This document shows positions 10,813 to 21,077 of a stretch of 37,959 nucleotides of DNA, piece after piece. The position numbers and the translations under genes are program-made. The notes under the pieces were generated by a model. The model saw only the letters and a list, made by a program, of their open reading frames with translations, did no database searches and was not told where the DNA came from. The stretch is from a virus: IMG/VR virus record IMGVR_UViG_3300046692_000110. The stretch is one strand, 5' to 3'. The number at the start of each line of letters is the position of its first letter. The stretch's first letter is position 1.

Positions 10813-11532
10813 TTATGCGGCGTCAGTCGTCATCGATCGAGAGGATGGTGAATGCTGTTGCTGCCACTCTTGGGTCTTGCCCGTTGCCAATGGCGCGGTT
10901 CCGGTCCATCCGATCGGCCATCCCATGAGGTTTTCCCAAAAATCCGGGTTCACATACAGCTTCCCGATTGGCGTTCCGCGCAATTTGTTCTGACTGCCGC
11001 CGACCTCCTGGAAAGTCCCCCCCCATCTGCTTGAGCCATGGCATGGAGTCGGCCACGATCCAGCAACGGGAGCGGGTGTGGGCGGCGCCAACATGGTTTG
11101 ATCCCAGCACTCCCCATCGTGCAGAGAACCCCATGTCGGCCAGGTCTCCGAGGACTGTTCCGAGCCCTCGATGAGTGAGAGCTGACGAGTTTTCCACGAA
11201 CGCGAATCGCGGTCGTACTTCGCCAATGATCCTTGCCATTTCCCGCCATAGTCCGCTCGACTCACCCTCGATGCCGGCCTTTTGTCCTGCCTGGGAAATG
11301 TCGGTGCAGGGGAAGCCGCCAGAAACAACGTCAACAGTTCCGCTCCAGGGGCGTCCGTCAAAGGTACAAACATCATCCCAAATGGGGAATGGTGGAAGGT
11401 GTCCTTCATTTTGGCGCTGCATGAGTCTCCTGGAGCAGAAGGAATTGATTTCCACTGCGCAGACTGTTCGCCATCCAAGGAGCTTTCCAGCAAGTATCCC
11501 GCCACCAGCGCCTGCGAAAAGTGCCAGCTCAT
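10813..11532 (-). CDS. Full-length overlapping ORF in the +1 frame of the methyltransferase (frame B, 239 aa), coding status unresolved
   Basis: No stop for 239 codons. It contains SWKTRQLSL, ETWPTWGSLHDGECW, WPTP and NPDFWENLMGWPIGWT. Confidence 0.35.
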   Translation of the reverse strand: MSWHFSQALVAGYLLESSLDGEQSAQWKSIPSAPGDSCSAKMKDTFHHSPFGMMFVPLTDAPGAELLTLFLAASPAPTFPRQDKRPASRVSRADYGGKWQGSLAKYDRDSRSWKTRQLSLIEGSEQSSETWPTWGSLHDGECWDQTMLAPPTPAPVAGSWPTPCHGSSRWGGTFQEVGGSQNKLRGTPIGKLYVNPDFWENLMGWPIGWTGTAPLATGKTQEWQQQHSPSSRSMTTDAA

Positions 11533-11536
11533 TCAT
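10823..11536 (-). CDS. DNA (cytosine-5)-methyltransferase, compact phage type (frame A)
   Basis: Ordered motifs are FAGAGGG (I), GFPCTDIS (IV), FVENS (VI), AAHTRSRCWIVA (VIII) and EPGFLGKPHGMADRMDRNRAIGNGQDP (IX/X). Confidence 0.85.
   Translation of the reverse strand: MNELALFAGAGGGILAGKLLGWRTVCAVEINSFCSRRLMQRQNEGHLPPFPIWDDVCTFDGRPWSGTVDVVSGGFPCTDISQAGQKAGIEGESSGLWREMARIIGEVRPRFAFVENSSALTHRGLGTVLGDLADMGFSARWGVLGSNHVGAAHTRSRCWIVADSMPWLKQMGGDFPGGRRQSEQIARNANREAVCEPGFLGKPHGMADRMDRNRAIGNGQDPRVAATAFTILSIDDD
11017..11024 (-). repeat. G8 homopolymer (C8 on the + strand) inside the methyltransferase locus
   Basis: Counted directly: gtCCCCCCCCatc. It lies between motif VIII and the C-terminal motifs of both frames. 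Confidence 0.9.
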
Positions 11537-11667
11537 TGGAACTCCTGCGTTGGTAAGTTTTGGTCATCGCGCCGTTGACCGTGTTGCCGCGCTTCAGCAC
11601 GACATTGGCCAGCTTCTCGCGGTCTTTCTCGCTGTGGCTGGCCTGACTGAGCAGGCCGAAGTAGCTG

Positions 11668-12114
11668 TTAGGCAGCCTTCTTCGGCTTTGGGCTGGCTTT
11701 GAGCGGAGTGGTCAACGCCTTCTCGACGCTCCAGCCAAGCCGCAGGCGCATGCTCAGTGCGTTGGCGGTCATGCCCACCTCTGCCGCCCAGTCCGCTACG
11801 TTTTTCGTGATGCCGCCATGCTCAAGCATCACGCAGTGTGTACGGTTCTTGTTCTGCGCGGCCTGGGTAACCCATCGGCAATTGCCGGGCTCGTAGCCTT
11901 TGGCGTTCTCGATGCGGTCCAGGGTCATAGCGCGATCAGGGCATTCCCCCATGTCGTCCCGGAAGTTTGCGAAGTAATGCCAGCGCTCACAGACCTTTAC
12001 GCCGAGCGCGCCGTAATACTTGTAGTTGCCGCAGGTGGGCGTATTGCAGCGCTGCATCATCGACTTCCAGCGGGCATAAGTCAGCGTGCCGCAGCCGCCA
12101 TGTTTGATTCGCAT
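11668..12114 (-). CDS. HNH/AP2-like homing-endonuclease-type protein
   Basis: YARWKSMMQRC...YYGALGVKVCERW..F.NF..DMG..P....TLDRIENAKGYEPGNCRWVTQAAQNKN is the typical stand-alone phage HNH pattern. GGAGAA precedes the ATG at 12114. Confidence 0.7.
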   Translation of the reverse strand: MRIKHGGCGTLTYARWKSMMQRCNTPTCGNYKYYGALGVKVCERWHYFANFRDDMGECPDRAMTLDRIENAKGYEPGNCRWVTQAAQNKNRTHCVMLEHGGITKNVADWAAEVGMTANALSMRLRLGWSVEKALTTPLKASPKPKKAA

Positions 12115-12326
12115 GTCGTTCTCCAATGCAGCAAGATCAGGTGTGGGCTCTTGTCCCGAGTCGAGTTAGCCCGGGCAATCAACATCAGCACGTCGATGCA
12201 CTCATCAATAACGCGCTTCCCGAGAGACTGCTTGAGATCTCGGGGAATGTTGCGGGTGAGATTCGTGGCCATCTGTAGCAGGCCGAGCGAACTTTTGTAG
12301 ATACTCAAATCCGTGTGCATTGACAT
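12081..12326 (-). pseudogene. Avd-like four-helix-bundle protein (DGR accessory type), apparently truncated after about 65 aa
   Basis: DLSIYKSSLGLLQMATNLTRNIPRDLKQSLGKRVIDECIDVLMLIARANSTRDKS fits the Avd / 23S-IVS four-helix-bundle pattern (IY.k...l, iPk..k..LG.ri, l.li..AN). The tail runs into the HNH gene and loses the pattern. Confidence 0.55.
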
Positions 12327-20228: not shown

Positions 20229-21077
20229 ATGACAAACATCGTTCACATTGACAAGTCCAGGGGGTTCACCCGGATGGACAACAAGCTGATGGAGTCTTTG
20301 GCTACGGTTGACCTGCCTGCGCGTGACCTGCGCGTTCTGATGGCCATTGCTCGTCAGACCATAGGCTTCCAACTGGACACCAAACGTCTCACCGCCGACG
20401 AGATCGGCAAACTCACCAACATGCGCCGCGACGTTACCTCCAAGTCGATCAGTCATCTGCTTGAGCGCCGGATCATTTACAGGGTGGGCGGAAGCCGCGG
20501 CGATATCGGTATTGCACCGGTGTCGGAGTGGTCTTACTACGAGGAAAAGCCAGAGTGTCTCACTGAGACCAAATCGTCTCACTCAGCACAAATCGTCTCA
20601 CTGAGAAATGATGTGAGTGAGACCAAAACAGCAACTTGCCTTCTTTATACAAAGAAAGAACCCCTATTAACTCTTCCTTCGGAAGAGATTAATCCCCCCC
20701 CTGTAAAGCCGAGTCGTGCACCTCGCAAGCCGAAAGAGGAAAGCGCCACTGATTTCGGCAAAACGCAAATGCTCGCCAACAACCCACACTTGCTCACCGA
20801 GCAGCTGATCGTTGACTGGCTAAAAGTCCGCAAGGGCAAGCGCGCAGCTATGAGCCAGACCGTGTGGGACTCGCTCAATGCCGAACTTGACCGCTGCGTT
20901 GAAGCCGGAATCTCTGCCGACATCGCTATGAAACAGGCTGTTCTGCAAGGCTGGCAGGGGTTCCGCATGGAGTGGGTAGCCAAACGCCTGGCCGAGGAAA
21001 GCAGGCAGTCCGGCTCGTCGAGCGGCCCTGATTTCTACGCCACCGACTGGCGCCGCGATACGAGCGATGACCTATGA
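20229..21077 (+). CDS. Replication initiator, lambda O-like
   Basis: GFTRMDNKLMESLATVDLPARDLRVLMAIARQTIGF resembles the O N-terminal domain. Iterons lie inside the gene. Confidence 0.8.
   Translation: MTNIVHIDKSRGFTRMDNKLMESLATVDLPARDLRVLMAIARQTIGFQLDTKRLTADEIGKLTNMRRDVTSKSISHLLERRIIYRVGGSRGDIGIAPVSEWSYYEEKPECLTETKSSHSAQIVSLRNDVSETKTATCLLYTKKEPLLTLPSEEINPPPVKPSRAPRKPKEESATDFGKTQMLANNPHLLTEQLIVDWLKVRKGKRAAMSQTVWDSLNAELDRCVEAGISADIAMKQAVLQGWQGFRMEWVAKRLAEESRQSGSSSGPDFYATDWRRDTSDDL
20557..20623. repeat. Origin iterons: GTCTCACT(G/C)AG three times direct at 19-bp spacing, plus one inverted copy, followed by an AT-rich stretch
   Basis: Copies lie at 20557, 20576 and 20595, with the inverted copy at 20613. 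AT-rich sequence follows to about 20700. Confidence 0.7.

Follow-up and report, generated by a model that had tools for sequence, protein, structure and literature searches.

A viral C5 cytosine methyltransferase gene with a second, conserved open reading frame along its whole length

In the monomeric C5 cytosine methyltransferases M.HhaI, M.HaeIII, and Dcm, a large domain with motifs I, IV, VI, VIII, and X is in the same chain as the target-recognition domain and motif IX. In other enzymes of this class, the work is divided between two polypeptides. M.AquI is described as having two polypeptides that must associate (PMC3404938). As described, it is split serially: its alpha subunit has motifs I–VIII and half of the variable region, its beta subunit has the rest of that region and motifs IX–X, and there is no long dual-coding stretch. 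In M.EcoHK31I (YGGCCR), according to the published descriptions, beta is encoded wholly within another frame of the alpha gene; alpha has motifs I–VIII and X, beta has motif IX, and both are required for activity (PMC2836561; PMC3404938). The N-terminal ~42 residues of that beta are described as dispensable (same sources).

A second frame could also be reached by slippage. Phase-variable methyltransferases (phasevarions and contingency loci) have a G/C homopolymer within the ORF, and a change of +/-1 alters the product. And in frameshifted genes for M.HaeIII, homonucleotide runs are sites where slippage, whether transcriptional or translational, can bring two frames together (Rockah-Shmuel et al. 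2013, PMC3812077).

We studied a methyltransferase locus in a stretch of viral DNA of 37,959 nucleotides (IMG/VR record IMGVR_UViG_3300046692_000110), which we will call the window. A preliminary description of the sequence reported two methyltransferase-related frames that meet at a run of eight Gs, and suggested that the run might switch or mix methyltransferase isoforms, or that a sequencing or assembly error might have produced the frames. The two frames and the slip products stand, but the isoform switching is not supported, and the origin by error is refuted. In our analysis, the locus is probably a single dual-coding gene for an orphan C5 cytosine methyltransferase of a phage or prophage, whose alpha and beta polypeptides assemble as in M.EcoHK31I. 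The features of the locus are:

10823..11536, minus strand: frame A (alpha), 237 amino acids; the large (catalytic) domain of a C5 cytosine DNA methyltransferase, containing motifs I, IV, VI, VIII, and X
10813..11532, minus strand: frame B (beta), an ORF of 239 amino acids that is +1 relative to alpha and coextensive with it
11530..11546, minus strand: Shine-Dalgarno sequence and twin starts (AGGAG-TTCCA-ATGAATG), common to alpha and beta
11534-11536, minus strand: ATG of alpha, from the sequence
11530-11532, minus strand: ATG of beta, 4 nt downstream, from the sequence
11060..11518, minus strand: alpha motifs I (FAGAGGG), IV (GGFPC), VI (FVENS), and VIII (HTRSRCW, at 11060-11080); the constraint on frame A is dominant, and frame B is open and partly conserved
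10904..11056, minus strand: the B-selected segment (alpha codons 161-211), an unconserved linker in frame A
11044..11055, minus strand: WPTP of beta, which is the +1 reading of V-A-D-S of alpha (GTG GCC GAC TCC)
11017..11024, minus strand: the G8 tract, read as M-G-G-D in alpha and as W-G-G-T in beta
10903..10950, minus strand: NPDFWENLMGWPIGWT of beta, motif-IX-like (family consensus LNPxWVEWLMGWPxGWT)
10850..10903, minus strand: motif X of alpha (RNRAIGNGQDPRVAATAF), where frame A is selected again

The AGGAG is 5 nt before the ATG of alpha and 9 nt before the ATG of beta. The +1 frame of alpha has no stop codons, while each of the remaining 33 ORFs in the window with 150 codons or more has 3–30 stops in its +1 frame. 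The full-length overlapping pair of ORFs exceeds chance, unlike the G8 tract: the window has two G8 runs where 1.58 would be expected, and when we shuffled its dinucleotides 100 times, 43 of the shuffles had at least two. (The collection's own gene call for the window starts alpha at Met39, giving a protein of 199 amino acids, P0008, that has lost motif I; beta is not called.)

To judge from its sequence, frame A is a genuine, full-length, and intact gene. Residues 4–162 of alpha match positions 4–160 of the 324 positions in PF00145 from Pfam (E = 3.5e-25). The AF2 model of alpha (pTM 0.71) is a C5 methyltransferase large domain, and Foldseek aligned it to M.HaeIII and M.HhaI at E ~1e-12 across ~170–190 columns. 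Alpha has the large-domain fold of the monomeric enzymes and the same motifs, with motifs I, IV, VI, and VIII all in one chain. The match to PF00145 stops short of the motif X region; the expected GNxVxP at the C-terminus is present as AIGNGQDPRVAA. There are over 8,000 homologues of alpha in the database. The best-scoring ones mostly have 98% coverage, at identities down to ~52%, and these matches take in the C-terminal ...RxDRxxAIGNGQ(V/D)P..., which is motif X. Within it, G217, N218, G219, Q220, and P222 are near-invariant while their third codon positions are free. AF2 predicts a C-terminal helix at residues 222–233, with a mean pLDDT of 86 for the block 221–230.

Unlike the monomeric enzymes, alpha has neither motif IX nor a target-recognition domain in the interval from motif VIII to motif X, as judged from Pfam, the codon columns, and the AF2 model. 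The gap between motifs VIII and X is just 49 residues, which are unconserved and mostly predicted to be disordered (pLDDT is under 50 for residues 169–217), so there is no room in alpha for either element.

Frame B is not open by chance. From collections of viruses and genomes, we retrieved 160 homologous loci, and we counted stop codons in 132 of them (122 unique). In 108 of the 132, the beta frame has no internal stop. The mean number of internal stops in the +1 frame is 0.23 per gene, versus 4.0 expected from synonymous-codon shuffles of alpha and 12.9 in the +2 frame. Among 36 representatives with under 65% identity and with GC contents of 46–69%, we found 11 stops in the +1 frame, versus 148 expected (Poisson P ~1e-48). 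Immediately beyond the ends of the gene, stops in frame B are frequent. As a control, the +1 frame of monomeric enzymes is not open: E. coli dcm has 14 stops.

The start of beta is conserved as well. The 5' end of the gene is NTGAATGAGYTGGC in most homologues. The ATG of beta is present at +4 in 100 of the 122 unique homologues, and NTGAATG in 100 of all 132. The start codon of alpha itself varies (ATG, GTG, or TTG), but the codon for Asn2 is AAT in all 105 Asn columns, so the ATG of beta 4 nt downstream is preserved. In most genes, the stop codon of beta is within ~17 nt of that of alpha.

The consensus of beta is MSW...SRFGM...SSWKT...TWPxWG...WPTP...(a variable part in which WPTP is often repeated)...LNPxWVEWLMGWPxGWTDLKPL... 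In the motif-IX-like segment, E, M, W, P, W, and T are near-invariant, and AF2 places a helix at beta residues 196–203. Compared by eye only, LNPxWVEWLMGWPxGWT shares with the canonical ..TPRECARxQGFPDxY a P, an L/M, a G, an aromatic residue, another P, and another aromatic residue. Profile searches of Pfam and PDB gave no significant match for motif IX in beta. Searches of frame B and of A/B chimeras against Pfam and NCBIfam found nothing beyond the N-terminal domain of alpha, and neither did searches of PDB with the beta profile, a profile of the 21-residue motif, or an A-B-A mosaic. The AF2 model of beta alone is poor (pLDDT 53).

The frame that is under selection switches from A to B and back to A along the gene. 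According to per-column codon counts, the third positions of frame A vary the most across codons 1–160, so frame A is selected there. Across codons ~161–211, the residues of frame A change non-conservatively while those of frame B are fixed. For instance, at column 204, alpha has D, H, N, or Y (xAT) and beta has Met in 120 of 123 sequences. At columns 206 and 210, alpha has V, M, or L (xTG) and beta has Trp (in 114 and 117 sequences); at column 207, alpha has A, P, or S and beta has Pro (118 sequences); and at column 163, alpha has N, Y, D, or H and beta has Thr. From codon ~212 onwards, it is again frame A that is kept, with R, G, N, G, Q, and P having free third positions.

We also classified the substitutions among the window and its seven closest relatives, which are the window's subfamily:

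Alpha codons 2-158: 1533 synonymous in A and non-synonymous in B; 546 non-synonymous in A and synonymous in B
Alpha codons 159-211: 100 synonymous in A and non-synonymous in B; 375 non-synonymous in A and synonymous in B
Alpha codons 212-232: 199 synonymous in A and non-synonymous in B; 59 non-synonymous in A and synonymous in B

Furthermore, the conservation of beta was higher than in synonymous resampling of alpha, at 0.42 versus 0.30 in the N-terminal part and 0.60 versus 0.25 in the middle, although shared ancestry inflates these values somewhat. Judging from these substitutions, purifying selection across the linker of alpha (WPTP ... NPxWxEWLMGWPxGWT) acts on frame B and not on frame A. 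In alpha, the linker looks like passenger sequence.

The locus is most likely a methyltransferase gene of the M.EcoHK31I kind that is dual-coding over its full length. We compared it to the published description of that enzyme's layout, in which the second frame is also inside the alpha gene. Here too, alpha has motifs I–VIII as well as X, and another frame within its gene contains an ORF that is conserved, open, and selected. Because the layout is the same as reported for M.EcoHK31I, we favor two polypeptides from the twin starts. Also, the N-terminal half of beta is weakly constrained, which parallels the dispensable N-terminus described for M.EcoHK31I beta. There are differences, however. 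The overlap here is complete (239 versus 237 codons), with starts that are 4 nt apart. The variable region of alpha is short, unconserved, and predicted to be disordered, so the target-recognition part appears to sit in beta and not in alpha. And we saw no adjoining restriction gene; since the surrounding genes are phage genes, the locus seems to be an orphan and not a component of a restriction-modification system. M.AquI, as described, resembles our model in being a C5 methyltransferase of two polypeptides, with the serial split as the difference. We also considered the out-of-frame HNH insertion in methylases of actinophages (PMC11855218), but this is a different phenomenon.

We propose that one mRNA, with one Shine-Dalgarno sequence, would serve both of the starts that are 4 nt apart (ATGAATG). 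Initiation at the first start would give alpha, with the catalytic large domain (motifs I–VIII), a passenger linker that needs only to remain open, and motif X. Initiation at the second start would give beta, in the +1 frame. The first ~150 residues of beta would overlap the catalytic coding region and be under weak constraint. The selected part would be the C-terminal third of beta, made up of WPTP, a stretch that varies, and LNPxWVEWLMGWPxGWT, and this third would supply the small domain that alpha is missing, with motif IX and target recognition. The active enzyme would be an assembly of alpha and beta, as experiments have shown for M.EcoHK31I. The G8 tract would simply be Trp-Gly-Gly of beta in GGG codons (TGG GGG GGG), a choice that is synonymous in beta and neutral in the linker of alpha. 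We infer that beta is translated from its own ATG, that it forms a heterodimer with alpha, and that it has a role in target recognition. From this analysis, alpha and beta are most likely two polypeptides of one enzyme, and neither an error nor alternative isoforms. Our proposal would explain why alpha alone seems to be without a DNA-recognition domain. It is also directly testable: changing Asn2 from AAT to AAC is silent in alpha but removes beta.

The main rival to this two-polypeptide model is a single mosaic polypeptide, with which the A-B-A pattern of selection is equally compatible. The ribosome would shift by +1 into frame B near codon 160, read WPTP...GWT, and shift by -1 back to frame A near codon 211. 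This would rebuild the canonical order of motif VIII, target-recognition domain, motif IX, and motif X in one chain, and selection falls exactly on A (1–160), B (161–211), and A (212–232). Also, three homologous loci (L087, L100, and L151) have a stop codon in the alpha linker while beta is open, which is harder to reconcile with two polypeptides, except if the three loci are pseudogenes or errors or have a split alpha. However, a mosaic does not require frame B to be open, or to have a conserved ATG, at the very 5' end of the gene, and thousands of called proteins read through the linker in frame A without a stop. At the junctions (columns 158–165 and 209–214), there is no conserved slippery sequence and no zero-frame stop, and there was no match in Rfam. 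In alignments, the spacing between motifs IX and X of the mosaic would be ~7 residues shorter than in solved enzymes. We consider the mosaic unlikely. We also considered that frame B might be an untranslated shadow ORF, which would result from alpha's amino-acid conservation together with codon bias, or from a constraint on the nucleic acid. The composition of alpha does lower the expected number of +1 stops to ~4 per gene, and beta alone has no confident fold. But this idea seems very improbable given that alpha varies (D/H/N/Y, V/M/L, or A/P/S) at positions where beta keeps Met, Trp, or Pro; that codons 159–211 are dominated by substitutions that are non-synonymous in A but synonymous in B; and that Asn2 is invariantly AAT. 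The stops are depleted from 46% to 69% GC, and we rejected a GC-rich shadow ORF in particular because the signal persists at 46% GC.

The G8 tract is at 11017–11024, as the preliminary description said: the plus strand reads CCCCCCCC, or C8, and the minus strand, which is the coding one, has G8. The tract is read as ATG GGG GGG GAC (M171-G-G-D) in frame A and as TGG GGG GGG ACT (W170-G-G-T) in frame B. The tract is 3' of motif VIII in frame A and of WPTP in frame B. By translating edited sequences, we confirmed the two products that had been predicted for single slips. Removing one G (G7) joins the N-terminus of alpha to the tail of beta (...LKQMGG-TFQEVGG...NPDFWENLMGWPIGWT..., 240 amino acids), and adding one (G9) joins the N-terminus of beta to the tail of alpha, with GNGQDP (236 amino acids). 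What had been missed is that in both alleles, translation from the other start enters the third frame and reaches a stop 21–22 codons on (193 or 195 amino acids).

The relatives do not preserve the tract. In the ten closest homologues, the tract codons contain G7 or G4-N-G2, and both frames are intact in all ten. P0001 (93% identical, and present on two contigs) and P0016 have ATG GGG GGG CAC, or G7 and then C, and the seven other close relatives have xTG GGG C/TGG xAC, or G4-C/T-G2. The difference between G8 and G7 is a substitution (GAC versus CAC), without a change in length. Among these close relatives, synonymous changes keep W-G-G constant in beta, while alpha drifts among G, R, and W. 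The changes that separate these relatives are synonymous in the selected frame, and G8 therefore arose by substitution and not by slippage.

If the locus were a contingency locus, then slippage by DNA or RNA polymerase at G8 would act as an on/off switch or would yield functional chimeras of alpha and beta. A simple-sequence tract within the ORF, as in phase-variable methyltransferases, is indeed present, and the products of +/-1 slips are open for at least 193 codons. Also, slippage and bypass at homonucleotides are documented for a methyltransferase gene (PMC3812077), although that report describes sporadic rescue in laboratory mutants, while both frames are intact here and there is no frameshift to rescue. 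Against this idea, the tract is within chance expectation, and all ten close homologues either lack it or have a shorter run, with substitutions that keep both frames. Among these we found no out-of-frame length variants and no ON/OFF polymorphism of either frame, unlike what is seen in phase-variable methyltransferases. A run of eight Gs is also short for high-frequency slippage. There is no RNA structure downstream of the tract (fold z = -0.58) and no Rfam match around it, and it does not resemble a site of programmed frameshifting or transcriptional slippage, as the slippery motif is not conserved and the zero frame stays open. Furthermore, a slip leaves no product with motif X (G7) or no product with motif IX (G9), so loss of function, rather than a new isoform, is expected. 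We therefore find isoform switching or mixing to be unsupported, and a contingency locus to be quite improbable. As for a sequencing or assembly indel at the homopolymer, homopolymers are error-prone, but with G8 both ORFs are full length and are colinear with homologues from independent assemblies, some of which have no homopolymer at the site. This refutes the suggested artefact, to which we give a negligible chance. The G8 tract looks like an incidental by-product of the dual coding, and at most a site of low-frequency OFF mutations that hit both chains. Counting it among phase-variation loci would call for evidence at the level of reads.

G runs are not confined to the window. Ten of the 122 other homologues have runs of 8–11 Gs at Gly-Gly sites (11 of 123 genes if the window's is counted), which can be set in favor of a contingency locus. 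Because such runs recur, some selective use of hypermutable tracts within the family is possible. In-frame runs of G8–G11 where both frames encode Gly-Gly(-Gly) are found in L005, L033, L055, L057, L065, L079, L080, L086, and L113. The runs in homologues are at codons ~84, ~123, and ~170–200 of the gene, with hot spots after motif IV and just after the WPTP of beta. These runs could be hypermutable and could hit both subunits, but the best interpretation is that they are by-products of the dual coding.

The beta family is large. By a profile search, it has at least 6,462 clusters at 90% identity, nearly all of which are annotated as "hypothetical protein" and have no Pfam domain. An exhaustive search at 50% identity found 7,064 representatives, and in most of these the alignment begins with residue 1. 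Beta matches phrog_1008 (E = 2.5e-16). Using tblastn, we found homologues of beta in the +1 frame of annotated methyltransferases from Salmonella phage S9-5 and Mycobacterium phage Hades (gp69), while in Pseudomonas phage phPA-G, the annotated CDS is frame B itself. In RefSeq genomes of E. coli, alpha alone is annotated. (A megablast search of the locus against phages gave one short match, which was uninformative.) The dual-frame layout is conserved in thousands of relatives but has so far been documented only for M.EcoHK31I. In the searchable literature, we did not find a description of this phage methyltransferase family, or of this variant of the layout or its scale.

Gene callers and RefSeq record just one of the two frames, and the other is missing or is a "hypothetical protein" in thousands of records; once the pair is recognized, a methyltransferase that is common in phages would be annotated correctly. 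More broadly, we can suggest, at somewhat less than an even chance, that this is a huge and essentially unannotated family from phages and prophages in which the whole gene (~230–350 codons) is translated in two frames, with starts 4 nt from each other, to give a catalytic alpha and a target-recognition beta that have to assemble. If so, then the beta frame alone would account for over 7,000 clusters at 50% identity, these would rank, in length and in spread, with the foremost same-strand overlapping gene pairs known from viruses of prokaryotes, and thousands of "hypothetical proteins" would be the missing half of a methyltransferase. Having Gly-Gly in both frames would push the DNA towards a run of Gs, as with G8–G11 in ~9% of members, and a single slip at such a run would knock out both subunits. 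The locus is a natural and deeply sampled case of two long proteins on the same DNA, and should be useful for studying the evolution and design of overlapping genes.

Some homologous loci depart from the usual layout. In the three loci with a stop in the alpha linker, beta runs without interruption to where it usually ends, and downstream of the stop, frame A goes on to encode motif X; in L087, the stop is immediately followed by an ATG. These could be split alphas, pseudogenes, or assembly errors. A distant relative, gp69 of Mycobacterium phage Hades (L161, locus 1083–1796), has early stops in the +1 frame, which is open only after codon ~35. The beta-like ORF that remains is ~180 amino acids and has SSWKT, W(R)TP, and NPTWLAWLMGFPVEW motifs. 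The beta of M.EcoHK31I is close to this in size, at 176 amino acids.

Directly upstream of the methyltransferase, the window has an ORF of 152 amino acids (11668–12126, minus strand; ...CGNYKYYGALGVKVCERW...NCRWVT...) that by eye is like an HNH/AP2-type homing endonuclease. In the contig of the closest relative, P0001, the methyltransferase adjoins genes for NinX (PF10765) and DUF551. This context is like the nin region of lambdoid phages, which suggests that the window is from a lambdoid phage or prophage. The second C8 of the window is on the plus strand at 20694–20701, within an ORF (20229–21077, plus strand) that by eye is of the replication-protein-O type, and there it encodes Pro-Pro-Pro (..EEINPPPVKPSR..).
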